A stretch of 64,000 nt of DNA from a virus (IMGVR_UViG_3300009034_000011), one strand, 5' to 3'. Shown: positions 20 to 27,821, counted from the stretch's first letter. Notes: generated by a model not told the origin, from the letters alone. Made by a program: numbers and translations.

Positions 20-95
20 TGGTGGACCGGACGAGAGTCGAACTCGCATATACTTGATTGCAGGTCAAGCGCTCTCCCAATTGAGCTACCAGCCC
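20..95 (-). tRNA. tRNA-Ala (anticodon UGC)
   Basis: Reverse complement gives a cloverleaf: acceptor GGGCUGG/CCGGUCC, discriminator A, encoded CCA, T-arm GCGAG-UUCGACU-CUCGU, anticodon loop CCUGCAA. The G3:U70 wobble is the Ala identity element. C33 is unusual. Confidence 0.8.
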
Positions 96-298
96 ATAAG
101 ATCTGACAATCTACTCCGAGCACAGTCCCGTACTAGGGAATCGGTACTTACCAAAAACTCCGGCAGCTCCTTAGCACTCATCTTCCCAATTAACTGTTCT
201 GCCAAGGAACCACAAACATAATGTTGATCGTTACTATTATTAAAGGGATCGTTACGTTCCTTTATAAGATATCGCAATATAATTATATCATCAGTCAT
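86..298 (-). CDS. small protein with C-terminal HEAT-like motif (paralog family member); C-terminus overlaps tRNA-Ala 5' end
   Basis: 70 aa ending in ELPEFLVSTDSLVRDCARSRLSDL, matching the family motif LPEyL-x6-VRxxAxxRLxxL. Confidence 0.5.
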   Translation of the reverse strand: MTDDIIILRYLIKERNDPFNNSNDQHYVCGSLAEQLIGKMSAKELPEFLVSTDSLVRDCARSRLSDLMGW

Positions 299-906
299 CC
301 GGAAACACTTCGGGCAAAGTCGATAGCCATCTGTTTAGCGTCTTCCATCGTCTTAGCTGCCCACTCTCCTCTTCCTAATTCTATTACACAATTCTCCCTA
401 GAACAGCGGACACGACCTCTTACAGGCCCGGTAACTTCTAGAAGACCCTCTGGTTTATCGGGATCAATAGCTACTACTTTTCTCCAGGTACTGGCATTAC
501 ACATATCGCCTTCCCTGAAACTACAATCGTAACCGATCTGTGTAAAGCTACTCGGTATATAGTGACAATCACCTTTCTTACAAGTACTACCTATTGAAAA
601 CCCATATATTGCTCGATGAGACCACCCATACCACTTTTTGGTCTTAGGAGCGTATCCTATAGAACACACGGAATGATCTGGAGCTGTTCTCTCAAATTGA
701 GTAATTCCAAATCTATGAACAAGTCTATATGCCCGCTTAGAACTCCCTATATAATCTCCGGACTTAGTATGGGCCATACCAGTCATCTCAACGAGCTCAC
801 AATCATCCTCAACCCCCATGGCTTTAGGGTCCACAATCTCTGTACATATATCATAGTACTTCATACGCCGCGTTATTATAACTTCTACAACCCCGCGTTT
901 ACTCAT
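295..906 (-). CDS. hypothetical protein
   Basis: 203-aa ORF with plausible start. No recognisable motif. Confidence 0.45.
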   Translation of the reverse strand: MSKRGVVEVIITRRMKYYDICTEIVDPKAMGVEDDCELVEMTGMAHTKSGDYIGSSKRAYRLVHRFGITQFERTAPDHSVCSIGYAPKTKKWYGWSHRAIYGFSIGSTCKKGDCHYIPSSFTQIGYDCSFREGDMCNASTWRKVVAIDPDKPEGLLEVTGPVRGRVRCSRENCVIELGRGEWAAKTMEDAKQMAIDFARSVSG

Positions 907-928
907 TACTATACCCCGAAATGTTAAA

Positions 929-1018
929 TGGCGGAAGGTGAGAGACTCGAACTCTCGGGGCTTTTTACACCCGGCTGTTTTCGAGACAGCTGCCTTAACC
1001 CAACTCGGCCAACCTTCC
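929..1018 (-). tRNA. tRNA-Ser (anticodon CGA), type II long variable arm
   Basis: Acceptor GGAAGGU/ACCUUCC, discriminator G, CCA, 3-bp D-stem, anticodon loop CUCGAAA, long variable arm, T-arm GAGAG-UUCGAGU-CUCUC. Confidence 0.75.
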
Positions 1019-1023
1019 GCATT

Positions 1024-1099
1024 TGGAGCCAGCGACGGGAATCGAACCCGTAACCTGCTAATTACGAATCAGCTACTCTACCAATTGAGTTACACTGGC
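1024..1099 (-). tRNA. tRNA-Thr (anticodon CGU)
   Basis: Acceptor GCCAGUG/CGCUGGC, anticodon loop UUCGUAA, T-arm ACGGG-UUCGAUU-CCCGU, discriminator U, CCA. Confidence 0.75.
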
Positions 1100-1100
1100 A

Positions 1101-1985
1101 TTATGGACGCACAGGTCTCCCTGGTGCTGGAAGAACTATTTGTATTCCATCTGTAACGCCAACCGCAGATGGGGTTCCAGCACCGTTTATAGCTCTAACA
1201 CCTCCATAGTAAGTCCCACCGAGCGACAAGGTTATACCAGCGAATACTTCTGTAGCAAGTCCGACGGAGACCCAATCTTGTACATCAGTTCCACCTGATG
1301 TAGTTCCAACACAATATTGATATCCTAAAATCCCGGACTCCGCGTCGCCACACTCTGGCCAGGTAATGTGAAAATGAGTCGCAGTGGCTGTAACATCTCC
1401 ATCATCAGACACAACCGGCATCGTAGGTGGCGTAAGATCAACAGTCGCACGGTTGGATGGGTCTGACATCGGACCGGATGCACCTACGTTATTAAGTGCT
1501 TCAACTTCTAATCTATAAGTCTTCCCATGAACTGCGGCAAAGGGAAGCGCAAGAGGGTCTTGCTCTGTAGGCGCAGTAGCATCCGGAGTTTCAAACGCAA
1601 GAAGAAACGAAATAACATCTAACCACAAAGTTTGCCCATCGTCCTTCGTGGGTCTAATATCGTATGTTGATGCACCGTCAACTATCTGCCAGGCGTTGTC
1701 CCAGCGTTTTGAAACAGTGGCCACATCTGAAAGGGTGATATTATGATCAATAAAGGCAGCACGCAACCCGGCAGAAATTACCCCACTATCCAACTCACTT
1801 TCATATGATGCATCAACTGCAAATAGAAACTCGAATACATACCCTTTGTAGTGGTCAACATTCCCGGCTGCGGGAGCCCAGTAAAATTCCAGTGCCGTAT
1901 CATTATCCCACGAACGATTCTGAGCACTAGCACTCAGGGTGTATAAGCTCAAAACTAGTACGAACAAAAGTACTCGTCTGTACAT
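1101..1985 (-). CDS. secreted protein with fibronectin-III/Ig-like beta-rich region
   Basis: N-terminal signal peptide MYRRVLLFVLVLSLYTLSASAQ. Repeated Thr/Gly/Val-rich strands typical of FN3/Ig-like folds. Confidence 0.45.
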   Translation of the reverse strand: MYRRVLLFVLVLSLYTLSASAQNRSWDNDTALEFYWAPAAGNVDHYKGYVFEFLFAVDASYESELDSGVISAGLRAAFIDHNITLSDVATVSKRWDNAWQIVDGASTYDIRPTKDDGQTLWLDVISFLLAFETPDATAPTEQDPLALPFAAVHGKTYRLEVEALNNVGASGPMSDPSNRATVDLTPPTMPVVSDDGDVTATATHFHITWPECGDAESGILGYQYCVGTTSGGTDVQDWVSVGLATEVFAGITLSLGGTYYGGVRAINGAGTPSAVGVTDGIQIVLPAPGRPVRP

Positions 1986-2172
1986 TGCATCATTCTCCTA
2001 TCCACTCTTTCGGCCGCACTCCTCGCAATCCGCAGTGGAGGTGCCCTCGAGCTTATATCTCCCTCTGCTTTTACCCTTACTTAAAATAGTAAGGCATCGG
2101 TTACATAAAACGCTTACCTTACCTAGCCGTACCACTCTGTTCGCGTACCTGTTAGGCACCGGCAACCTCTTT

Positions 2173-2514
2173 TCACAACGACTTCGAATCCTTGTTAGAT
2201 GGTTCATCTTGTGCAGCTCGCCACTTGCACCGAACATATTGAAGATATACGTCATAGTAATATGCACAACCGGTACATCCATAACGACTATAAACATCTA
2301 CCATCGGAAACAACTTACGACATCCTTCAAGGGCGGGACAATCGTAAACATAAGCTCCCCCGTACTGTTGAATAGGTATTTTCTCTGTGGCAAGTTCTTC
2401 CCATAGGCGATTTAGCTCTGCAAGTCTTTTCCAAGCCTCGTCGCTGTTGGGTCCATAACAGGGACCATAATGCTGCAGGAGGAGGTGCCTTTCTCTACAT
2501 ATATCTAAATTCAC
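2173..2514 (-). CDS. hypothetical Cys/Tyr-rich protein
   Basis: 113-aa ORF. Confidence 0.35.
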   Translation of the reverse strand: MNLDICRERHLLLQHYGPCYGPNSDEAWKRLAELNRLWEELATEKIPIQQYGGAYVYDCPALEGCRKLFPMVDVYSRYGCTGCAYYYDVYLQYVRCKWRAAQDEPSNKDSKSL

Positions 2515-2518
2515 AATA

Positions 2519-2880: not shown

Positions 2881-2985
2881 ATATTAAAGTACCTTCTAAT
2901 CAGCATCCCAATCCCCCAACCGATAAGAAACGACACAGCAAGAGTAACCGTATGGATTACAACAAATACTTGGAAGAACCTTCTC

Positions 2986-3195: not shown

Positions 3196-3209
3196 ATACA
3201 ACAATATAT

Positions 3210-3250: not shown

Positions 3251-3877
3251 TTATCTAATCTCATCTACAATTCCCATTCTCAATGCCTGATCGGAGTCGA
3301 ACCATAGATCATGCTCCAAAATCTCATCCAGCTTCTCAGGAGGTACTTTAGTATATTGGCCATATACATCCTTGATCATCTCCATGAATCTATCCAGGTT
3401 CTTCATCTCATCCTTAAGCTCTGAGTACTTACCCCACCACATAGAGGAGAGTTGGTGAATCAGGATATGTGCATGGGGCCGCATAATCCTATGCTCGGCA
3501 GAAACGGTAATGAATGTTGCAGCACTTGCTACTGCCCCATCTACAATGCTTGTTACGGGCGCTTGACATCGTACTACTTCATCCATGGCAGCGAACCCCG
3601 CAAGGAGGCTACCACCATAGGAATGGACGTGGAGGAATATATTGGCTGGATCCCTATCCTGGATCTTCGCTTCGTGCATCAGCTGGTTGGATGTTTCCCG
3701 GAGCCTCCTATTCAGCTGCAGGACCTGTTCTGAGGATACATCTGAGTAGAAATATATCCTATTATCTACAACTTCTACGTATGAGGGTTCCTTAATGATA
3801 TCCGCAGTGGGCTTCCTTGGAACCTCAGGTGCACTGCCACCATACCGATTGCTGCGCCATAGATCCGATGTACCCAT
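3251..3877 (-). CDS. clpP: ClpP-family serine protease (possible prohead protease)
   Basis: 208 aa with ClpP-like fold signature around HVHSYGGSLLAGFAAMD, plus His and Asp downstream. GGAGG Shine-Dalgarno upstream. Confidence 0.6.
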   Translation of the reverse strand: MGTSDLWRSNRYGGSAPEVPRKPTADIIKEPSYVEVVDNRIYFYSDVSSEQVLQLNRRLRETSNQLMHEAKIQDRDPANIFLHVHSYGGSLLAGFAAMDEVVRCQAPVTSIVDGAVASAATFITVSAEHRIMRPHAHILIHQLSSMWWGKYSELKDEMKNLDRFMEMIKDVYGQYTKVPPEKLDEILEHDLWFDSDQALRMGIVDEIR

Positions 3878-3899: not shown

Positions 3900-3974
3900 T
3901 GGAGCGAGCGAAGGGAGTCGAACCCTCATATCTAGACTGGCAATCTAGCGCTCTCCCAATTGAGCTACGCCCGC
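3900..3974 (-). tRNA. tRNA-Gly (anticodon GCC)
   Basis: Acceptor GCGGGCG/CGCUCGC, D GCUC/GAGC, anticodon stem CUAGA/UCUAG, loop UUGCCAG, T-arm GAGGG-UUCGACU-CCCUU, CCA. Confidence 0.8.
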
Positions 3975-4207: not shown

Positions 4208-4283
4208 TGGAGCGGGCGAAGGGACTCGAACCCTCAACGAGGAACTTGGAAGGCTCCCGCTCTACCAGTTGAACTACACCCGC
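4208..4283 (-). tRNA. tRNA-Gly (anticodon UCC)
   Basis: Acceptor GCGGGUG/CGCCCGC, anticodon stem GGAGC/GUUCC, loop CUUCCAA, T-arm GAGGG-UUCGAGU-CCCUU, CCA. Confidence 0.8.
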
Positions 4284-5211: not shown

Positions 5212-5301
5212 TGGCGGAAGGAGCGGGATTCGAACCCGCGGCCGTGTTACCGGACAATAGATTAGCAATCTATCCTCTTAAGCCAACTCGAGCACCCTTC
5301 C
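5212..5301 (-). tRNA. tRNA-Ser (anticodon GCU), type II
   Basis: Acceptor GGAAGGG/UCCUUCC, discriminator G, CCA, 3-bp D-stem, anticodon stem AUAGA/UCUAU, loop UUGCUAA, long variable arm, T-arm GCGGG-UUCGAAU-CCCGC. Confidence 0.75.
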
Positions 5302-6315: not shown

Positions 6316-6392
6316 TGGCGCCCGCAGCGGGAATCGAACCCGCAATCTCTGCCTTGACAGGACAGCGTGTTAGCCAACTGCACCATACGGGC
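6316..6392 (-). tRNA. tRNA-Asp (anticodon GUC)
   Basis: Acceptor GCCCGUA/UGCGGGC, anticodon stem CUGUC/GGCAG, loop CUGUCAA, T-arm GCGGG-UUCGAUU-CCCGC, discriminator G, CCA. Confidence 0.75.
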
Positions 6393-6925: not shown

Positions 6926-7014
6926 TGGTGGGCGAGGAGAGGATCGAACTCTCACGGCCGTTGCTGACCACTAGATCCTTAGTCTAGCTTGTCTACCAAC
7001 TCCAACACTCGCCC
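6926..7014 (-). tRNA. tRNA-Leu (anticodon AAG by 7-nt loop reading), type II
   Basis: Acceptor GGGCGAG/CUCGCCC, discriminator A, CCA, 3-bp D-stem, anticodon stem CUAGA/UCUAG, loop CUAAGGA, long variable arm, T-arm GAGAG-UUCGAUC-CUCUC. A34 is unusual for bacteria. Confidence 0.65.
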
Positions 7015-7020: not shown

Positions 7021-7095
7021 TGGTGCACCCGAGAGGAGTTGAACCTCCAACCACTGGCTTATAAGGCCAGCACTCTACCGTTGAGTTACGGATGC
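7021..7095 (-). tRNA. tRNA-Ile (anticodon UAU)
   Basis: Acceptor GCAUCCG/CGGGUGC, D ACUC/GAGU, anticodon stem CUGGC/GCCAG, loop CUUAUAA, T-arm GGAGG-UUCAACU-CCUCU, A73, CCA. Near-duplicate body of the tRNA-Ile(GAU) at 11856. Confidence 0.7.
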
Positions 7096-7746: not shown

Positions 7747-7832
7747 TGGTGGGCACGAAGAGATTCGAACTCTTATGGCTGCTAACCAACGAGGTTTGAG
7801 CTCGCCGTGTATTCCAACTCCACCACGTGCCC
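7747..7832 (-). tRNA. tRNA-Leu (anticodon CAA), type II
   Basis: Acceptor GGGCACG/CGUGCCC, anticodon stem GCGAG/CUCGU, loop CUCAAAC, long variable arm, T-arm AAGAG-UUCGAAU-CUCUU, A73, CCA. Confidence 0.75.
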
Positions 7833-8079: not shown

Positions 8080-8156
8080 TGGTACGCGAGGTGGGAGTCG
8101 AACCCACAGTAACCTGATCCTAAATCAGGCGCCGTTGCCAGTTAGGCTACTCGCGC
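8080..8156 (-). tRNA. tRNA with anticodon UAG (Leu by anticodon) but class-I short variable arm
   Basis: Acceptor GCGCGAG/CUCGCGU, anticodon stem CCUGA/UCAGG, loop UUUAGGA, 5-nt variable region, T-arm GUGGG-UUCGACU-CCCAC, A73, CCA. Amino-acid identity is uncertain. Confidence 0.6.
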
Positions 8157-9335: not shown

Positions 9336-9411
9336 TGGTGCACCCGACAGGACTTGAACCTGCATCGTTCCGGTTAAAAGCCGGATACCTAGCCAATTAG
9401 GTTACGGATGC
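9336..9411 (-). tRNA. tRNA-Lys (anticodon UUU)
   Basis: Acceptor GCAUCCG/CGGGUGC, anticodon stem UCCGG/CCGGA, loop CUUUUAA, T-arm GCAGG-UUCAAGU-CCUGU, CCA. Confidence 0.75.
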
Positions 9412-10611: not shown

Positions 10612-10686
10612 TGGTGTGCCTGGGAAGACTCGAACTTCCGGTCCTCTGCTTGTAAGGCAGATGCTTTAGCCGCTAAGCTACAGGCA
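10612..10686 (-). tRNA. tRNA-Val (anticodon UAC)
   Basis: Acceptor GUGCCUG/CAGGCAC, anticodon stem UCUGC/GCAGA, loop CUUACAA, T-arm GGAAG-UUCGAGU-CUUCC, CCA. Confidence 0.75.
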
Positions 10687-10690
10687 CAAG

Positions 10691-10766
10691 TGGCACGCCC
10701 GAGAGGAATCAAACCCCTAATCTACCGGTCCGTAGCCGGTCGCTCTATTCGTTGAGCCACGGGCGC
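10691..10766 (-). tRNA. tRNA-Arg (anticodon ACG)
   Basis: Acceptor GCGCCCG/CGGGCGU, anticodon stem ACCGG/CCGGU, loop CUACGGA, T-arm AGGGG-UUUGAUU-CCUCU (non-canonical T-loop), discriminator G, CCA. Confidence 0.65.
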
Positions 10767-11855: not shown

Positions 11856-11930
11856 GTTGGTGCACCCGGAAAGATTCGAACTTTCAACCACTAGCTTATC
11901 AGTCTAGCACTCTACCATTGAGTTACGGAT
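11856..11930 (-). tRNA. tRNA-Ile (anticodon GAU)
   Basis: Acceptor GCAUCCG/CGGGUGC, anticodon loop CUGAUAA, T-arm GAAAG-UUCGAAU-CUUUC, A73, CCA. Confidence 0.7.
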
Positions 11931-11948
11931 GCATAAATCCAAATTCAA

Positions 11949-12044
11949 ATTGGTGGAGGCGGCGGTATTGAAACCGCGTCCACAGTACCATAATATGAAA
12001 CTAATTCTAATTAGTTCATAGTACCGCGTCGAATCCTTACGCCC
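11949..12044 (-). ncRNA. 96-nt tmRNA-like tRNA-like domain (TLD-only mini-tmRNA / tRNA-Ala mimic)
   Basis: 5' GGGGGCG-UAA-GGAUUCGACGCGG and 3' GGACGCGGUUUCAAUACCGCC-GCCUCC-A-CCA match the conserved tmRNA 5' element (GGGGCUG..GGAUUCGACGGG) and 3' element (GGACGCGGGUUCAACUCCCGCCAGCUCCACCA). The acceptor stem has a G3:U70 pair. The anticodon arm is replaced by a ~40-nt AU-rich imperfect hairpin. Confidence 0.6.
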
Positions 12045-12268
12045 CCACGTTTAGCGAGTTTCTTCAGTCTCTTCTGACCTAACTCTCTTACAACCTCTGA
12101 CCCATTAACTAATAACATAGGCAACTCCCCTAGAGAGAGTTCTCGTAATAACTTCCGAGCCTGGCGAATATAACCCAAACGGGCATAAGTCCCGATCAAA
12201 TCAACTTGCGAATCAAGCGTCCGACCTCTAAAATGGGAAAGAGCCTCTTTGGAAATCCTTATTGTCAT
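12011..12268 (-). CDS. HEAT-like motif protein (paralog family); last 11 codons overlap the 5' end of the tmRNA-TLD-like RNA
   Basis: LGELPMLLVNGSEVVRELGQKRLKKL, then the reading frame runs into GGGGGCGUAAGGAUUCGACGCGG. Confidence 0.5.
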   Translation of the reverse strand: MTIRISKEALSHFRGRTLDSQVDLIGTYARLGYIRQARKLLRELSLGELPMLLVNGSEVVRELGQKRLKKLAKRGGVRIRRGTMN

Positions 12269-12894: not shown

Positions 12895-12968
12895 TGGTTG
12901 CGGGGGCGAGAGTTGAACTCGCCTATCGAGCTTATGAGACTCGAGAGCAGCCGCTGCTCCACCCCGCA
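12895..12968 (-). tRNA. tRNA-Met (anticodon CAU; elongator or Ile2-type)
   Basis: Acceptor UGCGGGG/CCCCGCA (U1-A72), anticodon stem CGAGU/GCUCG, loop CUCAUAA, T-arm GCGAG-UUCAACU-CUCGC, A73, CCA. Confidence 0.7.
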
Positions 12969-12976: not shown

Positions 12977-13050
12977 TGGCTGCCGAGGAAGGATTCGAAC
13001 CCTCACAAGCGGATCCAAGGTCCGCTGACCTACCGTTAGTCTACTCGGCA
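12977..13050 (-). tRNA. tRNA-Gln (anticodon UUG)
   Basis: Acceptor UGCCGAG/CUCGGCA with U1-A72 typical of bacterial Gln, anticodon stem GCGGA/UCCGC, loop CCUUGGA (C33), T-arm GAGGG-UUCGAAU-CCUUC, G73, CCA. Confidence 0.7.
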
Positions 13051-13055: not shown

Positions 13056-13130
13056 TGGTGCACCCGAAAGGAGTTGAACCTTCACCTCGCCGGTTAAGAG
13101 CCGGCCACTCTACCAGTTGAGTTACGGGTG
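13056..13130 (-). tRNA. tRNA-Lys (anticodon CUU)
   Basis: Acceptor GCACCCG/CGGGUGC, anticodon stem GCCGG/CCGGC, loop CUCUUAA, T-arm GAAGG-UUCAACU-CCUUU, CCA. Confidence 0.75.
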
Positions 13131-13400
13131 CAATTCATCCAATCTCGTTCTTGCTACATCTCGTACGACACTATACTCACTTACTAAGTACTCAGGAAGT
13201 GATGCTGGATCATCTACCAGTTTAAGCTGCATTAACTGATCACATAAAGCACACTCATAATCAAAAGAACATAGAGAACCATTACAGGGAAGTGCAACCC
13301 CTAAATCCTCAGCTATATGCGTCGTTTCAGGCCTCGGATGGGGAATATCGATACCAAACCGATCACGATACATTTTCGCCATATCACGGGCCGTCAACAC
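13122..13400 (-). CDS. HEAT-like motif protein (paralog family); C-terminus abuts tRNA-Lys(CUU)
   Basis: PASLPEYLVSEYSVVRDVARTRLDEL. Confidence 0.5.
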   Translation of the reverse strand: MLTARDMAKMYRDRFGIDIPHPRPETTHIAEDLGVALPCNGSLCSFDYECALCDQLMQLKLVDDPASLPEYLVSEYSVVRDVARTRLDELHP

Positions 13401-13418: not shown

Positions 13419-13494
13419 TGGTGTGCCCGGTCGGAGTCGAACCGACTACTCCCGGCTCTTCGGGCCAGAGCTCTACCAGTTGAGCTACGGACAC
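13419..13494 (-). tRNA. tRNA-Phe (anticodon GAA)
   Basis: Acceptor GUGUCCG/CGGGCAC, anticodon stem CUGGC/GCCGG, loop CCGAAGA (C33), T-arm GUCGG-UUCGACU-CCGAC, A73, CCA. Confidence 0.7.
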
Positions 13495-13681: not shown

Positions 13682-13757
13682 TGGAGAGCCGGGCGAGAGT
13701 CGAACTCGCAAATAACTGATCTGCAGTCAGCTCCCTTAACCATTTGGGTACCGGCTC
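13682..13757 (-). tRNA. tRNA-Cys (anticodon GCA)
   Basis: Acceptor GAGCCGG/CCGGCUC, 3-bp D-stem, anticodon stem GCUGA/UCAGU, loop CUGCAGA, T-arm GCGAG-UUCGACU-CUCGC, U73, CCA. Confidence 0.75.
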
Positions 13758-14538: not shown

Positions 14539-14568
14539 TGCTCACCCTCTATTTCACTATAAAATATG

Positions 14569-14654
14569 GTGGGGAGGGTCGGATTTGAACCGACGCGGCT
14601 GTTAACAACGGATTTACAGTCCGTCCCCTTCAACCTGACTCGGGCACCTCCCCA
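14569..14654 (-). tRNA. tRNA-Tyr (anticodon GUA), type II
   Basis: Acceptor GGGGAGG/CCUCCCC, anticodon stem ACGGA/UCCGU, loop CUGUAAA, long variable arm, T-arm GUCGG-UUCAAAU-CCGAC, A73, CCA. Confidence 0.75.
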
Positions 14655-15983: not shown

Positions 15984-16327
15984 CCTCTAAACTCTTCCCC
16001 ATACGCCTCATACTTCTCGAGCCACCTATTTATCCTCTCCCTATCCTTCTTCATCAGCTCTGCCATCCTATCAATCCTAGCCTCAACGAAAGGCTGGGCA
16101 ACAAACCTACTACTACCTTTAACGCAGGGGACGCTGCGCTCAAGTTTATCAGGATGGTTTTTCCAATAATCGAACCTTTCGTTATCATAATGTGGTATAG
16201 CAAGTCTTGGGGCAGTAGCTAGCTCTGCTAACTTATCACCCTGAACTTTATCCATATGCAGTACCCCTAAAAAGTTGGGGTGAGCGAGGAGAATCGAACT
16301 CCCATAAACTGATCCACAGTCAGTCAC
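15980..16327 (-). CDS. hypothetical protein
   Basis: 115-aa ORF. Confidence 0.4.
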   Translation of the reverse strand: MTDCGSVYGSSILLAHPNFLGVLHMDKVQGDKLAELATAPRLAIPHYDNERFDYWKNHPDKLERSVPCVKGSSRFVAQPFVEARIDRMAELMKKDRERINRWLEKYEAYGEEFRG

Positions 16328-16350
16328 TCTACCTTTGAGTTACACCCACC
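16276..16350 (-). tRNA. tRNA-His (anticodon GUG) with encoded G-1
   Basis: Acceptor GUGGGUG/CGCUCAC, extra 5' G pairing with C73, anticodon stem ACUGA/UCAGU, loop CUGUGGA, T-arm GGGAG-UUCGAUU-CUCCU, CCA. Confidence 0.75.
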
Positions 16351-17177: not shown

Positions 17178-17717
17178 TTAGAACCCCAATCTGTTCCTGA
17201 TATACGGACGGTCGAGGTAGTGACCCGTCTCATCTATCTCCCGGTCGAAAAGCGGGTCGACAATCTTCCCGAATAACTCCCTGCCGTAATTCTTGATTAC
17301 AATCCCTTCTATTCTCAAAGCACCAAATGCGGACTCAATACCCAAAAGATCGAAAAGCTGCCCAAGACCCTTAACAACACCCTCAAACAATATTGGTGGA
17401 GTTGGAATATCCAGTGCCCCGAAAACAACCTGCTTTTCAGAAAGCCCAAGAAAACACTCTTGCTGATAATCCCATATATCTAAACCTACCTCCCATTTGG
17501 GAAGCTGAGTATAAGCTACAGTGTGCTTACGCTTGAGGTTCTCTTTGAAAATAGCATAACCCTCATCCTCTAGTTCTATCAACTTACCATCCAGCTTTTC
17601 TTCCACAACTACAGGCCCGGTAAGAAGCTCATCTATCTCCTCAGAAGTCAAATAACGTTTGCTCCTCCTGGGATACCCTGGAATCTCAATTCGATATATC
17701 TTAGGGTATCTCTTCAT
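17178..17717 (-). CDS. hypothetical protein
   Basis: 179-aa ORF. Confidence 0.4.
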   Translation of the reverse strand: MKRYPKIYRIEIPGYPRRSKRYLTSEEIDELLTGPVVVEEKLDGKLIELEDEGYAIFKENLKRKHTVAYTQLPKWEVGLDIWDYQQECFLGLSEKQVVFGALDIPTPPILFEGVVKGLGQLFDLLGIESAFGALRIEGIVIKNYGRELFGKIVDPLFDREIDETGHYLDRPYIRNRLGF

Positions 17718-18154: not shown

Positions 18155-18179
18155 CCCTGCTCATATTCCCAAATTAGAT

Positions 18180-18255
18180 GGCGTGCCCGGTGAGGGTCGA
18201 ACTCACAACAAACGGATTAGAGGTCCGTTACTCTATCCATTGAGCTACGGGCACG
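18180..18255 (-). tRNA. tRNA-Arg (anticodon UCU)
   Basis: Acceptor GUGCCCG/CGGGCAC, anticodon stem ACGGA/UCCGU, loop CCUCUAA (C33), T-arm GUGAG-UUCGACC-CUCAC, G73, CCA. Confidence 0.7.
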
Positions 18256-18256: not shown

Positions 18257-18601
18257 TTATAACCCATACTCTACTACTCTAACGCCGGCAGCTTTAGCCT
18301 GAGAAACCATATTATTTGTGCCTCGGGTACGCCTACCTGCAAAAAATGCTAATACCATATCCGGCTTTCCCTCATCAAGCATCCGCTTATTGCGTATAGG
18401 ACCTGCCGCTTTATCGAATAAATCCCAATCTGCATAATAACAGTTCCACCCGATATCAAGCTCGCGAGCTATATCCAGTGCCAAGGAATCTGCTCCTGTG
18501 GCCTCTCCCGCTATGACCTCGTCAGCCCCATACTCTATAATAGCCTTTTTTATAGCTTCTCGATCGCTATATGTACGCGTACCACATACCAAAATACGCA
18601 T
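18257..18601 (-). CDS. SLOG/DUF2493-like Rossmann-fold protein
   Basis: MRILVCGTRTYSD...VIAGEATGADSLA pattern of the YspA/DprA-like SLOG superfamily. Confidence 0.35.
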   Translation of the reverse strand: MRILVCGTRTYSDREAIKKAIIEYGADEVIAGEATGADSLALDIARELDIGWNCYYADWDLFDKAAGPIRNKRMLDEGKPDMVLAFFAGRRTRGTNNMVSQAKAAGVRVVEYGL

Positions 18602-18619: not shown

Positions 18620-18696
18620 TGGTGTGCCTGGAGAGATTTGAACTCTCAAAACCTACAGATTAGGAATCTGTCGCTCTATCCATTGAGCTACAGGCA
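18620..18696 (-). tRNA. tRNA-Arg (anticodon CCU)
   Basis: Acceptor GUGCCUG/CAGGCAC, anticodon stem ACAGA/UCUGU, loop UUCCUAA, T-arm GAGAG-UUCAAAU-CUCUC, A73, CCA. Confidence 0.7.
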
Positions 18697-18811
18697 CTAT
18701 TGATGCGCCAGGTGGTACTCGAAACCACACCCTCTACTCGGCTTCTAGTGGTGACCGGTATCGCGCCGTTCGCGGTAGAGAACTGCCACTTCGGACTGAC
18801 GCAAACTAGTT

Positions 18812-18900
18812 GGTGGGCGAGGAGAGGATCGAACTCTCATGGCTTTTTACCACCGTCGGATTTTAAGCCCGATGCGTCTACCAATTTCACCACTCGCCCA
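18812..18900 (-). tRNA. tRNA-Leu (anticodon UAA), type II
   Basis: Acceptor GGGCGAG/CUCGCCC, anticodon stem UCGGG/UCCGA, loop CUUAAAA, long variable arm, T-arm GAGAG-UUCGAUC-CUCUC, A73, CCA. Confidence 0.75.
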
Positions 18901-19164: not shown

Positions 19165-19241
19165 TGGCAAGCGCGGTCAGAGTCGAACTGACACCCAACG
19201 GTTTTGGAGACCGTGACTCTAGCCAGTTAAGCTACGCGCTC
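19165..19241 (-). tRNA. tRNA-Trp (anticodon CCA)
   Basis: Acceptor GAGCGCG/CGCGCUU, anticodon stem ACGGU/ACCGU, loop CUCCAAA, T-arm GUCAG-UUCGACU-CUGAC, G73, CCA. Confidence 0.7.
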
Positions 19242-19516: not shown

Positions 19517-19593
19517 TGGTGGGGCTGACGAGATTCGAACTCGCGATTGACGGAGTGAAATTCCGACGGCCTAGCCAGCTAGCCCACAGCCCC
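19517..19593 (-). tRNA. tRNA-Glu (anticodon UUC)
   Basis: Acceptor GGGGCUG/CAGCCCC, D GGCU/GGCC, anticodon 4-bp stem CGGA/UCCG, loop AUUUCAC, T-arm GCGAG-UUCGAAU-CUCGU, A73, CCA. Confidence 0.65.
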
Positions 19594-21094: not shown

Positions 21095-23050
21095 TTACCT
21101 ATCCTTTTGACCAAAACCGCTTAATCCCTCAGGATATCCCGGCTTTTCTGTGGGTTCTGAGGACTCTTCTGCCTCTTCATCCTCAGGAGCTTCAACCTCC
21201 TTTTCGACATTAACTACAACCTGGGGACCTCCTTCATTAAAGATCTTACCCAGGTCAGGGATGAGTTTCGAGACCTGCTCAACTAAGTCACTGGCATCTA
21301 TACCAGTGGCCCCCAGCACCTCTTTAAGTACCGGAAGTGCTGCACCAGCTCCTAAGATGCCCTTAGCTACTCTACCGAAGCTACCTCCGCCGAGTGCCTC
21401 AAGGCCTCCGCCGCCTCCCAGATCGAGTATGCGAATACTTTCAATCTGTTCAGCCGGCTTCATTAACTGTTCAGCAACAGCCGGTAGCTGCTCAATAAGG
21501 GCAATCGTAATGTCTTTACTGATAATCTTCGGATCAATCCGATTCTCAGCCTCGACCATTTTCTCTTTGCCCTCAGCTAGTGCTCTTGCCTTCTCAAGCT
21601 CTGCTGCAGCCAGTAACTTGATAGCATCAGCTTCATGCTGGGCAGCTTCGAGCTGCGCTTCAGCTACTCGAGTGACTTTATAGGCCTCGGCATCAGCTGC
21701 TTTCTCTTGCACGATGAGAGCGGCCTCCGCGTTCTGACTAGCTGCCACGAGAGCAACCTCTTTCTCGCGTCTTGCCTCTTCAACCTCTTTAGCAGTTACA
21801 ACTTTCTCTTCCGCCTCAGCTCTTAAAGCACTGGCCACAAGCTTCAGTTGGTCTGCTTCTTCACGAGCCGTTTCCCTCTCGGCAACAGCTATCCTACTTT
21901 CAGCAGCGGCAACCTCGACAGTCCGCTTCCGCTCTATCTCGGCGGTCTCAACTGCCTGCTCCTGAGTCACTCGAGCAAGTTCAACTGCTTGCTTTCGCTC
22001 GACTTCGGCGGTCTCGATTGCCTTCCCACGCTCGATCTCACGCTGTTTTACAGCTTCTTCCTGCTCGACGCGTGCAGTCTCGATCTCCTTAGTTCTTGCG
22101 ATCTCAGCAGCTTCAACAGCCTTCTCACGCTCGATCTCACGCTGCTTTACAGCTTCCTCCTGGGCAATACGAGCCTGCTCAACAGCCTCCGTCTGCTTCT
22201 CTGATGCTTCCTTGACCGCTTGCTGCTCCTCGAGCCTATTAGTCTCGATCTCACGCAGCTGTAACTGCTCGGCAACGGCTCGGCCTTGCTCAAGCTCGTA
22301 AGATGCTTTCTTTTGCTGGGTCGTTTTCTCTTGAATACCGAGCTCCGCCCGCAATGTAGCATCTTCACGTAGTACTCTGTTCTCTTCCTCGATCTCCTTC
22401 GTACGGGTCTGCTTCGCCTCGACCTCTCCCTTAATGGTCTGAATGGCCGTCGCATCAAACCTGTTGTCCGGGTTCAGTAGAGACAGTTCTGTTTGATCAA
22501 GGTTGGTAATGGAAACGGTCTCTAGAGTAAATCCGTTTTCCTTCAGATCCTCAGTTGAGGCCTCCTGCACCTGATCGGCAAACTCCATCCGCTTCTCATG
22601 CAGTTCCTGCAACTCCATAGTAGCTGCAACACTTCTTAGGGCACCAACTAACTTACCCTCTAGAAGTTCACTAACGCTGCCGGGGGACAGGATTCTGTCT
22701 CCTAAACTAGCAGCTGCTGCGAGCACGTCCTCTTCATTGGGTTGAACTCTTATGAAGAACTCAGCCACAATATCAACTCGAAGACTATCTTTGGTAATAA
22801 GCGCATCCTGCCCCTGCCGTTCAACCTGTAAGTTCATAGTATTTAATGAAATCATCGACGTCTTACAGGTAATGGGATTGATTAGCTTACCTCCAAAGTA
22901 TGCTCGCTTCTTCTTACCACCGGAAACCACTAGTGCGTTATCCGCTGCAACCTTCCTGTAGAATGCCTTATACGCTATTAGAAGGATTATAAAAAGCGCA
23001 AAGACCACTCCAACCAGGATGTAAGTTGTGGTATTGAATATGGAAGCCAT
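21095..23050 (-). CDS. flotillin-like SPFH/band-7 domain protein with long Ala/Glu-rich coiled coil (YqiK-like)
   Basis: N-terminal TM helix then SPFH core (ALITKDSLRVDIVAEFFIRV...). About 300 aa of EA-rich heptad repeats. Confidence 0.65.
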   Translation of the reverse strand: MASIFNTTTYILVGVVFALFIILLIAYKAFYRKVAADNALVVSGGKKKRAYFGGKLINPITCKTSMISLNTMNLQVERQGQDALITKDSLRVDIVAEFFIRVQPNEEDVLAAAASLGDRILSPGSVSELLEGKLVGALRSVAATMELQELHEKRMEFADQVQEASTEDLKENGFTLETVSITNLDQTELSLLNPDNRFDATAIQTIKGEVEAKQTRTKEIEEENRVLREDATLRAELGIQEKTTQQKKASYELEQGRAVAEQLQLREIETNRLEEQQAVKEASEKQTEAVEQARIAQEEAVKQREIEREKAVEAAEIARTKEIETARVEQEEAVKQREIERGKAIETAEVERKQAVELARVTQEQAVETAEIERKRTVEVAAAESRIAVAERETAREEADQLKLVASALRAEAEEKVVTAKEVEEARREKEVALVAASQNAEAALIVQEKAADAEAYKVTRVAEAQLEAAQHEADAIKLLAAAELEKARALAEGKEKMVEAENRIDPKIISKDITIALIEQLPAVAEQLMKPAEQIESIRILDLGGGGGLEALGGGSFGRVAKGILGAGAALPVLKEVLGATGIDASDLVEQVSKLIPDLGKIFNEGGPQVVVNVEKEVEAPEDEEAEESSEPTEKPGYPEGLSGFGQKDR

Positions 23051-23079
23051 CTTATCCTCCTCTCCGATTTACCACTAAA

Positions 23080-23802
23080 CTATAGCCCCTCAAACTTGGC
23101 TACCACAAATATTTGAGTGGCCGGGTCATAGTCCTCTAAAAGCACCTCGTCGCCGTTAACGGGTTCCTCATCACCTTCCTCCACGCGGCATGCCACTTTC
23201 AACGTAGTGTTATCACCCGTATGCACCGCTACCCTCCCGAAAGCAGAGGTCACACGTCCACTGACAACACGAGCCGTCATACCTACTAAGTCTCGACGAG
23301 ATATAGCAGGCTCACTCTCGGGGAAAATCTTGGCTATCCCCATGGCAAAGTATTTTGTACAGAATATACTAGCGACAAAAGCAATCCCCGCGGAAACCGC
23401 AGCTAAGGGGGGAATAAGCCGTAGAATTCTGTTGCCTATAACCCGATTACAGATCAACCCAACAGCACCATACGAAGTAAGCCAGGTCATTATAAGAACC
23501 ATAAGTGGAACCTTCCCGACGTTAAGAAAACCTAGCATACTCACAAAGACACCAGGGCCGTCTGCACCTACATCATTATCAAACTCCACCTCCGAATCTA
23601 CATCCAGGTCGGTATCGATATCTATATCAGAGTCCACATCGATATCTATATCAGAGTCCACATCAACTTCTGTACTCCCACCAAACTCCAAACTAACTCC
23701 GACCACTTGTAAGAAGGCGAAGAGAAACACCAAAAGCAGCGGAGCAAGAAACATGACGTTGTACCAAGCTGACACAAATTCCCAGAAACCCATTGATGTC
23801 AC
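23080..23802 (-). CDS. NfeD-like membrane protein (YqiJ-like) partner of flotillin
   Basis: N-terminal TM segments and an acidic DxD repeat tract. C-terminal OB-fold segment (VVSGRVTSAFGRVAVHTGDNTTLKVACRV...) as in NfeD short homologs encoded next to SPFH genes. Confidence 0.55.
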   Translation of the reverse strand: MTSMGFWEFVSAWYNVMFLAPLLLVFLFAFLQVVGVSLEFGGSTEVDVDSDIDIDVDSDIDIDTDLDVDSEVEFDNDVGADGPGVFVSMLGFLNVGKVPLMVLIMTWLTSYGAVGLICNRVIGNRILRLIPPLAAVSAGIAFVASIFCTKYFAMGIAKIFPESEPAISRRDLVGMTARVVSGRVTSAFGRVAVHTGDNTTLKVACRVEEGDEEPVNGDEVLLEDYDPATQIFVVAKFEGL

Positions 23803-24071: not shown

Positions 24072-25781
24072 CTAGACTCGTCCAAGCAGGAACTCACTAA
24101 TCACATTTGGCGTCGCAGTATCAAACCCTACGACATCAAGCATTCCCACGTCAGTAGGATCTGCTATAGAGATATCATTAGCAGTCATACCTACAACAAC
24201 CAACTTAGCCTCTGGATTGATTGTATTACGGTAGCGATCCAAAGCCTGAGATGGATGCTCGTCACCATACCACGTCTCACTATCTGTATAGACGAGAAAT
24301 GCATCATACACCACATCCGAGTTTTTCTTATGCATTTGCTCAGCCCACAAGATTGGGAGAGCGCAGTTAGTTCCACCGAAGTTAAGCCCATCGGTATACC
24401 TTACAAGGTCGTCTAATCTTTGACGCTTGGACATATTGACTTCCACGAAGCGATGACAAAACGCCATAACAGATACCAAAGGCTCAACCTTGTAAGTAAC
24501 CATCGACATTGCACATGCACCCATCCTTGGCGTCATAGCAGGAATGCCAACGATATTACCTCCGTTCATGGAGCCGCTAACATCGAGACCAATGACGATT
24601 CTCTTGTTAGTTGGTTCAACATTCTTAAAAGCCTTGTAGAAGGCGCTATCTAGCGCGTCAACTACATCACCAACAACATTCCACTCGCCACGACCTCGTG
24701 CTCCACGGCCCTGACCGTAAGTCACCATAGCGGCTAGTACACCAAGTGGGTGTACTCTAGCTTTCGCTAAGATTTCCTCGTCAGTTAGCTGATCGCATAC
24801 CCTTTGGATAACCTTAAAGTTACCGTCAACTAGAAGGCCAACCTTGGACATATTGCCAAGGTTCCGTATCATGGCAGTCATCGGCATGCCACGACCCGCC
24901 GTAAGCATTGCTGCCCAAACCTTCTTATCGCTAAGAAACTGGGTTGGAATGCACTCACGAGGCAAGTTATGCTCCCTGATGAGCTTAACTATATCGGCAA
25001 CGGAGGTAGCTGCCTTGGCTTCCTCGAAAGCTCCGATGAACTTTGGCATAACCTCCCAGTGTTCTGCTTTTGCCTTATCAACTACCCAAGCGTACAGAGC
25101 ACCGTGAGGGCTGATATAATATTTCCCCTTCTCCACTGCATCTGCACTTAAGGTATCTGGTACAGAAACTGCCTTATTTGGGTTTGGGTGTGCAAGTCTC
25201 AACACGTCAAAGTGAGACCAGCCATCTCTCGACTGGTACTTAGCTAACTGGTACGCAAGGCCATCTGCATTTCTACCATTGTACCAACTCGCGATAGCAT
25301 CTTTATAACCCCTACCCCAACCCCGGAATGCTTCGGTATAGGCAACGAGGTGGAATAGATGAGTTCCAATACGAGCTATCTTTGGTATAGCTTGAAAAGC
25401 AGCTCTCCTCGTTTCTATATCCTGTAGAGTTGGATGCTTGCCTCCTGCTCCGAGACACATAGCTAAGACAAAGAGGGCGTAATCATTCTTAGGTGCCCTG
25501 CCGGAATCACTTATCTCAACTATCGTGTCAACTACCCTCTTACCGTCTTCTTTAATACAACGGCGGGTAGAATCGCACGCATCCTTGGTCAGTTTTCTTT
25601 CACTTACGTAATAAGTGCCCCCTTCTGTACCAAGGACTAGAAAACGATTCAATAGCATCCAGTCGTCCACCTTCCAGGCAAACCCTCCGGCATTGTTCAT
25701 CTCCATATCTTCACGGCCTGGAATGCGCTCTGTTTGAGGCGTCTTAATTCTAACCCCTTGCGTAAGTAAATGCTTCCTCAT
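24072..25781 (-). CDS. rsr: Ro60 ortholog Rsr (TROVE domain plus C-terminal vWA with MIDAS motif)
   Basis: 569 aa. C-terminal IVIGLDVSGSMNGG MIDAS motif plus downstream T and D. N-terminal ~380 aa helical, TROVE-like. Flanked on its upstream side by Y RNA-like genes. Confidence 0.6.
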   Translation of the reverse strand: MRKHLLTQGVRIKTPQTERIPGREDMEMNNAGGFAWKVDDWMLLNRFLVLGTEGGTYYVSERKLTKDACDSTRRCIKEDGKRVVDTIVEISDSGRAPKNDYALFVLAMCLGAGGKHPTLQDIETRRAAFQAIPKIARIGTHLFHLVAYTEAFRGWGRGYKDAIASWYNGRNADGLAYQLAKYQSRDGWSHFDVLRLAHPNPNKAVSVPDTLSADAVEKGKYYISPHGALYAWVVDKAKAEHWEVMPKFIGAFEEAKAATSVADIVKLIREHNLPRECIPTQFLSDKKVWAAMLTAGRGMPMTAMIRNLGNMSKVGLLVDGNFKVIQRVCDQLTDEEILAKARVHPLGVLAAMVTYGQGRGARGRGEWNVVGDVVDALDSAFYKAFKNVEPTNKRIVIGLDVSGSMNGGNIVGIPAMTPRMGACAMSMVTYKVEPLVSVMAFCHRFVEVNMSKRQRLDDLVRYTDGLNFGGTNCALPILWAEQMHKKNSDVVYDAFLVYTDSETWYGDEHPSQALDRYRNTINPEAKLVVVGMTANDISIADPTDVGMLDVVGFDTATPNVISEFLLGRV

Positions 25782-25799
25782 AACTACACACCCCCTGTA

Positions 25800-26309: not shown

Positions 26310-26391
26310 GTTCCGTTATTTAAGATATTGGGCAAATAGTAGATAAAGGAGTGTCAATTTTCGGGTTGATAACCTTCATCCTCCGGCCCAA
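26310..26391 (-). ncRNA. Y RNA-like unit 12
   Basis: 5' UUGGGCCGGAGGAUGAAGGUUAUC with 3' partner CUCCUUUAUCUACUAUUU-GCCCAA. Lies between the HNH gene and a structured spacer upstream of rsr. Confidence 0.5.
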
Positions 26392-26420
26392 TAATAGGTG
26401 CACACTTCACGCTGCCGCAT

Positions 26421-26882
26421 TTAAATATCATAGTCAGAAGCAAAGGCGTCTTCCCACTTCCAGTAGCCCCGCTTCTTAACCGTGCGCTTCCTATGGCAGT
26501 TAGCGCAACACACTTCACATTTAGCTATCTCAGCTTTAATGGTAGCTAGGGCATATCCGTGCGTTACCATTTCTCCAACTTGATAACGTTTCTCCCCACG
26601 CACATGATCAAATTCCAGAACCAATGGATCCGATTCACCACAATCGACACACGGATGGGTATTCAAATAGTGAATCAAAAAAGCTTTATTCGCAGCGATT
26701 CGCCTTCGCATATTCACGCGAACTACCCTCATATAATGGGGCTTATTGTTCTGGAAATATTCCCTATGGTAAGCAGCAACACACGCCTTACACGTATTCT
26801 TTCTGTTCCGTTTAGCCGGGGATCGAAAACTAAATTCCTCCTCCGGCTTCACCTCGTTACATTTTATACACTGCTTATTCAC
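26421..26882 (-). CDS. HNH endonuclease with N-terminal zinc finger
   Basis: CVDCGESDPLVLEFDHVRG ... NCHRKRT HNH motif. CxxC...CxxC N-terminus. Confidence 0.6.
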   Translation of the reverse strand: MNKQCIKCNEVKPEEEFSFRSPAKRNRKNTCKACVAAYHREYFQNNKPHYMRVVRVNMRRRIAANKAFLIHYLNTHPCVDCGESDPLVLEFDHVRGEKRYQVGEMVTHGYALATIKAEIAKCEVCCANCHRKRTVKKRGYWKWEDAFASDYDI

Positions 26883-26902
26883 TATGCTACCTTCTTTAAA
26901 GT

Positions 26903-26978
26903 TGGTCGGGGAGACAGGACTCGAACCTGCAATCTCCAGCTCCCAGGGCTGGCCCGCTAAGCCATTGCGTCACTCCCC
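26903..26978 (-). tRNA. tRNA-Pro (anticodon UGG)
   Basis: Acceptor CGGGGAG/CUCCCCG with C1-G72 typical of bacterial Pro, anticodon stem CCAGC/GCUGG, loop CCUGGGA, T-arm GCAGG-UUCGAGU-CCUGU, A73, CCA. Confidence 0.7.
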
Positions 26979-27109
26979 GACAATATATTGGACGGTGAAC
27001 CCCAACTTTTAGTGCGGCTATGGGAGATGGATGTTGCGGTCCACCGTCCGGAGGCGGATTCCGACGAGTTGTGCGGCTATGGGAGATGAATTGTCGGAAT
27101 CCGCCCGAG

Positions 27110-27181
27110 TCATATATGGGCAAGTGGTTGACAGTGGGAGGAGCCAAATTTGCGGTTCGGTAACCCACTGCCTCCGGCCCA
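27110..27181 (-). ncRNA. Y RNA-like unit 11 (mini Y: Ro-binding helix only)
   Basis: 5' UUGGGCCGGAGGCAGUGGGUUACC pairs with 3' CUCCUCCCACUG..GCCCA. It is followed (27000-27110) by a 13-bp hairpin GGCGGAUUCCGAC..GUCGGAAUCCGCC and a duplicated AUCUCCCAUAGCCGCAC motif. Confidence 0.5.
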
Positions 27182-27449
27182 ATTAACATAATCACTCACC
27201 TGCTGGAACTAAAAGACGCTTCATAGGTTCTGAAGGACTTTCCTGGAGTTTACAATCTCCCAAGTATCGGGATACTGAATCGACAAGAGGAACAGCAACT
27301 GCATAAGCGTTTTTTGTCACAGACAGATCAGCACCCGCGGCAGCTTGCTGCAACTTCTTCGCGACCAATACCATCAGTTCCGTTCGTACAGCCGGTGTCA
27401 ACTCAACAACTTCAAGACTAGCCATACCTTTACCTCACGCCGCAATTAA

Positions 27450-27596
27450 ATGCTGGACAAGGTGTCGCAAATGGGACGCTTTCCGACGCTCCACCACTGA
27501 GCTATGCGCCGTGCGGCCGAACCGTTCAGAGGCACAACTGGAATCGAACCAGTGACATCCGGAATTGAATGGTAACCCACCTACTACGGTCCAGCA
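27450..27596 (-). ncRNA. Y RNA-like unit 10 with permuted tRNA-like module
   Basis: 5' CUGGACCGUAGUAGGUGGGUUACC, then T-arm ACUGG-UUCGAUU-CCAGU, a loop-closed acceptor-like hairpin, D-arm GCUC-AGUGGUGGA-GAGC, then the 3' Ro strand CCCAUUUGCGACACCUUGUCCAG. Confidence 0.55.
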
Positions 27597-27609
27597 AGAT
27601 AAAATCGTT

Positions 27610-27730
27610 GGGCTAAAATTGCCAATGGGTGAAATGGTTCCGGGGGTTGGATTCAAACCAACGCGTATCGCCCTCGGGCGGTGCTCTATCAACTGAGCTA
27701 CCCTGGATAACCCATACAGCAGCGGCCCAA
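27610..27730 (-). ncRNA. Y RNA-like unit 9 with embedded near-complete tRNA-like domain (acceptor, D-arm, mini-hairpin, T-arm, CCA) in normal order
   Basis: 5' UUGGGCCGCUGCUGUAUGGGUUAUC, then UCCAGGG-UA-GCUC-AGUUGAUA-GAGC, then CGCC-CGAG-GGCG hairpin in place of the anticodon arm, then GUUGG-UUUGAAU-CCAAC, then CCCCGGA-A-CCA, then 3' Ro strand CCCAUUGGCAAUUUUAGCCCAA. Confidence 0.5.
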
Positions 27731-27746
27731 CGATGCTCTCTTTCAA

Positions 27747-27821
27747 TTTGGCTGTCCTGGTCGGCTTCGAACCGACAACCCCCTGATTAACAGTCAGGTG
27801 CGCTACCAGTTGCGCCACAGG
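27747..27821 (-). tRNA. tRNA-Asn (anticodon GUU), embedded in the Y-RNA array
   Basis: Acceptor UGUCCUG/CAGGACA, D GCGC/GCGC, anticodon stem CCUGA/UCAGG, loop CUGUUAA, T-arm GUCGG-UUCGAAG-CCGAC, G73, CCA. Confidence 0.75.

Follow-up and report, generated by a model that had tools for sequence, protein, structure and literature searches.

C32-C33 anticodon loops in the tRNA island of a large uncultured phage and their possible role in escape from U33-dependent host enzymes

U33, the U-turn uridine of the tRNA anticodon loop, is among the most conserved nucleotides in biology. A 64,000-nucleotide viral sequence (IMGVR_UViG_3300009034_000011; the whole stretch is hereafter called the window) begins with a dense tRNA island in which six genes encode C at this position (C33), and the locus thereby raises the questions of whether these loops are real, whether C33 is a property of phage tRNAs more generally, and what a phage might gain from replacing so conserved a residue. 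ARAGORN places 30 tRNA genes between positions 20 and 27824 (27.8 kb), all on the minus strand, with acceptor stems of seven base pairs and anticodon loops of seven nucleotides; all 30 end in a genome-encoded CCA, and together they represent all 20 amino acids. Clustered on one strand among small phage open reading frames (ORFs), in a window that encodes phage-type replication genes, they constitute the tRNA island of a large uncultured phage.

Six island tRNAs carry C33

C32-C33 is found in tRNA-Ala(UGC), Thr(UGU), Gln(UUG), Phe(GAA), Arg(UCU) and Pro(UGG), whose anticodon loops have the common form C32-C33-N34-N35-N36-R37-A38. A first-pass annotation of the window had proposed C33 in at least five tRNAs (Ala, Thr-UGU, Gln, Phe and Arg-UCU), all of which were borne out, with Pro-UGG as the sixth. 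The assignment would be undone by a shifted loop or a pseudogene-level score, and neither was found. The anticodon stems of all six form five of five pairs in the canonical register and only 0-2 when the register is moved by one base in either direction. Infernal, the engine underlying tRNAscan-SE, was applied to Pro, Gln, Phe, Ala and Thr-UGU and in each alignment assigned C to the U33 column at the highest posterior probability, and all 30 island tRNAs score 50.5-73.1 bits against Rfam RF00005 (gathering score 29). Loop misplacement is ruled out as the source of C33 by the register test and the Infernal alignments. Sequencing error is likewise ruled out by the six independent sites, by C32-C33 in the Gln ortholog of a relative (L006, described below) and by an unrelated 229-kb IMG/VR phage (L001), in which the Ala anticodon arm GCTTGACCTGCAATCAAG, C33 included, is identical.

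The deviation in the island tRNAs is specific to position 33, as a single C56U is the only departure at the other invariant positions examined. U8, G53, T54, T55, R57, A58, C61 and R37 are canonical in all 30 tRNAs and C56 in 29, compared with 24 of the 30 for U33. Deviations therefore number 6/30 at position 33 against 1/240 over eight other invariant positions, and the chance of six of seven deviations falling at one of nine positions, if evenly spread, is approximately 1e-5. C33 arose independently within the window: Thr-UGU and Arg-UCU have as their nearest paralogs Thr-CGU and Arg-CCU, both with U33, and the six tRNAs are not recent duplicates of each other. As the phage has a single tRNA each for Ala, Gln, Phe and Pro, completeness of the set depends on the function of these C33 tRNAs; we infer that the C33 tRNAs decode.

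A different explanation is that the six genes are non-decoding decoys or decaying pseudogenes that soak up nucleases or tRNA-binding proteins. The Rfam scores of the C33 tRNAs (53.6-62.8 bits) do fall in the lower half of the set, and competition between phage and host tRNAs for immune effectors has been suggested (PMC12409363, discussion). We nevertheless regard decoys as very improbable, given that the other invariant positions, the stems, the CCA and the identity elements are intact in all six, that four of the six are the sole phage tRNA for their amino acid, and that compensatory stem changes in the Gln ortholog indicate selection maintaining the Gln fold.

C33 recurs in phage tRNAs

As controls we assembled unselected tRNA neighbourhoods from IMG/VR and from GTDB species genomes with a T-loop-plus-CCA pattern in which the anticodon loop plays no part, and ran ARAGORN at every locus. 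The samples are modest in size, tRNAs from the same contig are non-independent and IMG/VR contigs may carry host flanks. Cellular genomes yielded C33 in 1 of 226 tRNAs, and in 0 of the 198 that are canonical at ten other positions. Viral contigs yielded 24/643 (3.7%) with the first pattern and 14/317 (4.4%) with a second pattern counted over new loci only, or 17/451 and 8/215, respectively, among tRNAs canonical at the ten other positions; pooled, C33 occurs in 38 of 960 IMG/VR phage tRNAs (4.0%). The window stands at 6/30, and at 6/28 on the canonical subset. When the comparison is restricted to canonical tRNAs, the excess of viral over cellular C33 is significant (Fisher p=0.0025). The window likewise exceeds the first viral sample, both over all tRNAs (Fisher p=0.0013) and over canonical ones (p=0.0012). 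C33 recurs at a low rate in phage tRNAs and is commoner there than in cellular tRNAs.

The replacement has a characteristic form and distribution. Phage tRNAs lacking U33 carry C in 38 cases, A in three and G in one, and C32 accompanies C33 in 25 of the 30 C33 tRNAs of the first viral sample and the window. C33 is also clustered by contig, to a degree reached in only 1 of 5000 permutations. A 108-kb contig (L293; IMGVR_UViG_3300003321_000691) resembles the window with C33 in 6 of 23 tRNAs, and the T5-like Salmonella phage S113 has no C33 among its 26. Several C33 tRNAs were also seen in three other uncultured phages (L082, 4/36; L059, 3/30; L130, 3/24).

The recurrent C32-C33 context bears on the possibility that C33 is edited to U after transcription by a cytidine deaminase, so that the gene differs from the mature tRNA, possibly as a regulatory switch. 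The dinucleotide could act as a recognition motif, and C-to-U or C-to-pseudouridine editing of tRNA position 32 occurs in trypanosomes, plants and Vibrio cholerae. We know of no tRNA editing at position 33, and Pfam and PHROGs searches of approximately 30 island ORFs, in which the small ORFs were covered in part, revealed neither a deaminase domain nor another tRNA-modifying enzyme. Editing is accordingly most unlikely.

The controls also bear on decoding. C33 could alter the geometry of the U-turn and thereby tune U34 wobble or the speed of acceptance, favouring whole-box reading or a fit to codon usage. Within the window U34 is present in five of six C33 tRNAs versus 7 of 24 U33 tRNAs (p=0.026), and the four-codon boxes of Ala and Pro are each served by a single phage tRNA (Ala-UGC and Pro-UGG). 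A tie of C33 to U34 or to given isoacceptors was rejected, as it is weak in the window and gone across phages. Val-UAC, likewise the sole reader of its box, retains U33, and Phe-GAA combines C33 with G34. Published U33 substitutions are reported to reduce ribosome binding, not to improve it. We consider such tuning unlikely.

C33 among relatives of the phage

The phage is distant from characterized genomes. A megablast of 20 kb of the window against INPHARED gave no match, and its polymerase is at most 31% identical to any INPHARED phage polymerase. Homologs of a 314-aa island protein were found at 54-60% identity on Logan assemblies. Two of the contigs concerned (L003 and L006), relatives known only from metagenome assemblies, also carry Ro, an RNA-ligase-like gene and a tRNA island, in a synteny rearranged with respect to the window. 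Searches with the Ro protein and with the alignment of the 314-aa protein revealed no further relatives in IMG/VR or the JGI metagenomes, a 294-aa ORF had no relatives that we could find, and the Ro region of Sinorhizobium phage Phosso was uninformative, as it holds no tRNAs.

Ortholog comparisons cover Gln-UUG, Arg-UCU and Pro-UGG; Ala, Thr-UGU and Phe are left out, since the homologs of the island ClpP sit in contigs without tRNAs and so provided no orthologs of these three. The Gln-UUG ortholog in L006 keeps C32-C33 despite two compensatory changes of stem pairs (gcgga/uccgc versus acaga/ucugu). The Arg-UCU orthologs in both L003 and L006 carry U33, and the Pro-UGG orthologs in the same two relatives carry U32-U33, so that they differ from the window at both positions (UU versus CC). 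C33 is maintained in one lineage-spanning case and has been gained or lost in others.

A pattern built on the 3' half of tRNA-Gln was tried as a route to phage relatives in metagenomes and was abandoned, as it retrieved bacterial Gln-CUG tRNAs and att-like fragments instead. The bacterial tRNA-Gln(CUG) genes of two JGI contigs (L009 and L010) have the acceptor stem, the T arm and most of the anticodon stem in common with the phage Gln(UUG), a resemblance that is a possible clue to the host lineage.

Proposed escape from U33-dependent enzymes, and the alternative of drift

The reading that we tentatively favour is that the island provides a self-sufficient tRNA supply in which some tRNAs escape host enzymes requiring U33 through a tolerated U33C change. 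With 30 chargeable tRNAs for all 20 amino acids, translation of the AUA-, AGA- and AGG-rich phage mRNAs would be independent of the state of the host tRNA pool. Replacement of U33 by C in six of them, always beside C32, would then be a tolerated "hardening" substitution, in that a pyrimidine at position 33 would leave the tRNA usable on the ribosome and remove a uridine needed by some host enzymes. The enzymes avoided might be anticodon-loop RNases with a preference for U and a cleavage site between positions 33 and 34, such as the PrrC-type HEPN nucleases or Cas13a in its collateral cleavage; alternatively, they might be U33-dependent modification enzymes whose product could flag a tRNA for attack, for example TsaBCDE, which forms t6A37. 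The more general proposition is more doubtful, namely that C32-C33 loops are a virus-specific and widespread hardening that keeps decoding and hides tRNAs from PrrC-, RloC- or Cas13-type cuts at 33/34 or from U33-dependent modification enzymes.

Nuclease resistance fits the circumstantial evidence that C33 is virus-enriched, position-specific, clustered by lineage and variable among relatives, and the island contains or adjoins an RNA-ligase-like gene, a Tad6 anti-defence gene and a Ro/Y-RNA module. Published specificities bear on which enzyme C33 might evade. The main site at which activated LshCas13a cleaves tRNAs is the first anticodon nucleotide; the enzyme prefers U, and its favoured substrates include Gln-UUG and Thr-UGU (PMC11042736). 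Escherichia coli TsaBCDE does not modify a U33C tRNA (PMC8887486), and Thr-UGU and Arg-UCU of the window would therefore be affected.

Several observations weigh against this reading. A substrate with C33 is cleaved no less well than the wild type by the Kluyveromyces lactis gamma-toxin (PMC2275089), and U33C makes no difference to E. coli TrmJ (PMC4105751). In bacteria no nuclease or modification enzyme is known to be blocked by C33, and we identified no U33-dependent nuclease. Within the island, 24 of 30 tRNAs retain U33, including the classic nuclease targets Lys-UUU and Glu-UUC. Across phages C33 is spread over approximately 20 anticodons with no isoacceptor preference and without U34 enrichment (10/24 versus 285/618), so that no single specific nuclease is indicated. 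Other invariant positions deviate in 1-4% of the phage tRNAs sampled (T54 4.2%, T55 2.8% and A58 3.7%, compared with 3.9% at position 33), and some C33 may therefore reflect relaxed constraint.

These last observations are also what supports the main and serious rival of hardening, near-neutral drift; tuning, editing and decoys are less likely. If phage tRNAs merely supplement the host pool and evolve fast, C33 could accumulate without an adaptive role, U33C being the mildest change at that position, with C32 perhaps compensating and some lineages tolerating the change better than others. The U33 state of the Arg-UCU and Pro orthologs adds to this case by marking C33 as labile. Drift would not readily produce a deviation limited to position 33 in the window, a C33 rate that is still 3.7-3.8% among phage tRNAs canonical everywhere else, or strong clustering by contig; it also sits poorly with the retention of Gln C32-C33 over a divergence that includes two compensatory stem changes, and with the paired change from UU to CC at positions 32 and 33 of Pro. 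Drift is a possible account of C33, somewhat less likely than hardening.

Comparison with known systems

Phage tRNA islands and nuclease-evading anticodon-arm substitutions are both already known. The tRNAs of phage T5 escape AriB through substitutions in the anticodon arm (PMC12409363), and the T5-type system, in which tRNA-Lys, Thr and Asn act against PARIS AriB and tRNA-Tyr against retron PtuAB, resembles the window in its dense island with interspersed small ORFs and in arm substitutions that keep the anticodon. The T5-like S113 has 26 tRNAs in approximately 13 kb, with short-arm Leu tRNAs as in the window. In contrast, T5 is altered at positions 39 and 41, where AriB cleaves (PMC12409363), whereas the window is changed at the universally conserved U33, and resistance was shown experimentally for T5, whereas for the window it is proposed.

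Cluster C1 mycobacteriophages (about 33 tRNAs) have a near-complete set, as does the window, and mutations in the loops of phage tRNAs were predicted to protect against VapC and other anticodon nucleases, PrrC among them (van den Berg et al. 2023, PMC10264068). The hypothesis for both is the same, that loop differences protect from host tRNases. That study set phage tRNAs against known host tRNAs and known cleavage sites, whereas the present case concerns U33C; a term search of its main text found no mention of position 33 or U33.

In multicellular eukaryotes the initiator tRNA-Met naturally carries C33, evidence that ribosomes can use such a tRNA. C33 also alters recognition by modification enzymes, acting as an anti-determinant for the t6A enzymes of bacteria and yeast (PMC8887486). 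The eukaryotic tRNA is an initiator, whereas the six phage tRNAs are elongators and the phage Met tRNA carries U33. Phage T4 answers anticodon-loop cleavage by PrrC in another way, by repair with Pnkp and Rnl1. The window island holds an RNA-ligase-like gene, which is a possible RNA repair partner; unlike in T4, no polynucleotide kinase/phosphatase was found, and the ligase-like ORF is only 179 aa with a partial Pfam match. Repair and the hardening proposed here are distinct strategies.

In literature searches on C33, U33 and U33C with phage tRNAs we came across no account of U33 being replaced recurrently and preferentially in viruses. If a fifth of a phage tRNA set does work with C33, elongator tRNAs can dispense with the U-turn uridine in vivo, and if hardening is correct, textbooks overstate the need for U33 in elongation in vivo. 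With C33 at approximately 4% in phages (20-26% in some, such as the window and L293) and 0-0.4% in cellular genomes, it offers a simple sequence marker that could locate tRNAs shaped by host-phage conflict and help in the search for U33-reading enzymes; it could also inform how nuclease-proof tRNAs are designed for phage engineering or synthetic biology.

The tRNA set and its decoding capacity

The first-pass annotation described a dense, minus-strand, CCA-encoding island, as found here, and counted approximately 31 tRNAs, a number that did not stand. ARAGORN gives 30, and the surplus comes from two weak Rfam "tRNA" matches within an array of Y-RNA-like genes, which are non-decoding tRNA-like modules of those genes (Table 1). 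The near-complete coverage of codon families that it reported was upheld, as the anticodon set reads nearly all sense codons under the established wobble rules, with gaps at UCU, UCC and UCA (Ser), CGG (Arg) and the initiator. The sole CAU tRNA, with U1-A72 and the anticodon stem ucgagu/gcucga, does not have the features of a bacterial initiator tRNA-fMet, namely a C1xA72 mismatch and three G-C pairs at the foot of the anticodon stem, and the island therefore contains no initiator tRNA. ATA accounts for 41% of Ile codons in the window and AGA plus AGG for 48% of Arg codons, and cognate island tRNAs are present for all three. Codon supply by the island is plausible, since the set is complete and matches codon usage.

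Three further tRNAs had been singled out as atypical, and all are present as claimed: a Leu-UAG with a class-I short variable arm, the AUA-reading Ile-UAU and the A34-bearing Leu-AAG. Along with the C33 loops they are real and atypical for bacteria; these three of the four features are ordinary in phage sets. The first-pass suggestion that the atypical features reflect codon-usage reprogramming or resistance to host anticodon nucleases is supported in part. The variable region of Leu-UAG, at 4 nt, is shorter than the 10 nt or more of class II bacterial tRNA-Leu and than the 13-17 nt of the other three Leu tRNAs, and short arms occur in 22 of 77 phage Leu tRNAs versus 0 of 8 cellular ones. They were absent from 47 phage Ser and 17 phage Tyr tRNAs. 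Work on E. coli LeuRS indicates that the enzyme does not require the long arm, with which the short-arm phage Leu tRNAs are consistent. Ile-UAU occurs 12 times in the phage sample, versus 19 for Ile-GAU, and Leu-AAG four times.

Phe-GAA and Cys-GCA carry G37 where the A36-A37-A38 motif for i6A has A37. Among phage Phe tRNAs G37 is common (8 of 22); it was not seen in 23 other phage Cys tRNAs, but Cys G37 is retained in the relative L006. Near-identical acceptor stems unite Ile-UAU, Ile-GAU, Lys-CUU and Lys-UUU in one group and Arg-UCU, Arg-CCU, Val and Phe in another; such likeness across amino acids points to duplication of tRNA genes within the phage and a later switch of anticodon.

Table 1. 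Features of the window, with positions counted from its first nucleotide.
Feature	Position	Strand	Remarks
tRNA-Ala(UGC)	20-95	minus	loop CCUGCAA, C32-C33; G3:U70 identity pair; CCA; 60.8 bits
Tad6 anti-Thoeris homolog	295-906		1.8e-41
tRNA-Ser(CGA)	929-1018	minus	U33; long variable arm
tRNA-Thr(CGU)	1024-1099	minus	U32-U33; nearest paralog of Thr-UGU
tRNA-Thr(UGU)	2519-2596	minus	loop CCUGUAA, C32-C33; 53.6 bits
ClpP-like protease	3251-3877		
tRNA-Gly(GCC)	3900-3974	minus	U33
tRNA-Gly(UCC)	4208-4283	minus	U33
tRNA-Ser(GCU)	5212-5301	minus	U33
tRNA-Asp(GUC)	6316-6392	minus	U33
tRNA-Leu(AAG)	6926-7014	minus	A34; loop CUAAGGA; kept in L003 and L006
tRNA-Ile(UAU)	7021-7095	minus	AUA reader
tRNA-Leu(CAA)	7747-7832	minus	U33
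tRNA-Leu(UAG)	8080-8156	minus	variable region 4 nt (class-I shape); A73; G37
tRNA-Lys(UUU)	9336-9411	minus	U33
tRNA-Val(UAC)	10612-10687	minus	U33
tRNA-Arg(ACG)	10691-10766	minus	U33; sole island tRNA with a T-loop deviation (U56)
tRNA-Ile(GAU)	11858-11932	minus	U33
tmRNA-like RNA	11951-12046	minus	96 nt
tRNA-Met(CAU)	12895-12968	minus	elongator-like; U1-A72; anticodon stem without GGG/CCC; U33
tRNA-Gln(UUG)	12977-13050	minus	loop CCUUGGA, C32-C33; 58.3 bits
tRNA-Lys(CUU)	13056-13131	minus	U33
tRNA-Phe(GAA)	13419-13494	minus	loop CCGAAGA, C32-C33; G37; 57.3 bits
tRNA-Cys(GCA)	13682-13757	minus	U33; G37
tRNA-Tyr(GUA)	14567-14653	minus	U33
tRNA-His(GUG)	16276-16349	minus	U33
RNA-ligase-like ORF	17178-17717	minus	PF09414, partial match; 179 aa; in island; kept in L006
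tRNA-Arg(UCU)	18179-18254	minus	loop CCUCUAA, C32-C33; 62.8 bits
SLOG/YspA-like ORF	18257-18601		
tRNA-Arg(CCU)	18620-18697	minus	U32-U33; nearest paralog of Arg-UCU
tRNA-Leu(UAA)	18811-18899	minus	U33
tRNA-Trp(CCA)	19165-19241	minus	U33
tRNA-Glu(UUC)	19517-19593	minus	A32-U33
Flotillin/SPFH protein and YqiJ/NfeD-like membrane protein	21095-23802		
Ro60/TROVE gene and array of Y-RNA-like genes	24072-25781 and 27113-29053	minus	approximately 8-9 Y-RNA-like genes
tRNA-Pro(UGG)	26903-26979	minus	loop CCUGGGA, C32-C33; 57.0 bits
567-aa ORF	27435-29138		almost certainly spurious
Weak Rfam tRNA match	27638-27707		non-decoding module of a Y-RNA-like gene
tRNA-Asn(GUU)	27749-27824	minus	U33
Weak Rfam tRNA match	28159-28231		non-decoding module of a Y-RNA-like gene
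Radical-SAM (QueE-like) protein	36955-37746		
Glutamine-amidotransferase-QueC fusion	40835-42307		
GTP cyclohydrolase I	54199-55014		

Neighbouring genes and RNAs

Besides the RNA-ligase-like gene, the island contains two further ORFs related to conflict, a Tad6 anti-Thoeris homolog and a SLOG/YspA-like ORF. A Ro60/TROVE gene, assigned by the Pfam TROVE and vWA_Ro60 domains, adjoins the array of Y-RNA-like genes, which give sub-threshold matches to the sbRNA/Y-RNA family RF01656 and to YrlA (RF02553), some of them with tRNA-like modules. The 567-aa ORF predicted over this array is almost certainly spurious. In L003 and L006 Ro likewise adjoins gene-free gaps.

A short tmRNA-like RNA was also identified, both ends of which match the Rfam tmRNA model (60.8 bits). 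An acceptor stem that includes G3:U70, a T arm, CCA and a single long hairpin are present, whereas pseudoknots and a recognisable tag reading frame are absent. ARAGORN makes no call for this RNA, which may represent a minimal alanine-accepting tRNA-like domain. The window also encodes a ClpP-like protease, as well as a flotillin/SPFH protein that forms a pair with a membrane protein of YqiJ/NfeD-like type. Finally, genes for GTP cyclohydrolase I, a glutamine-amidotransferase-QueC fusion and a radical-SAM (QueE-like) protein together suggest 7-deazaguanine modification of the phage DNA.

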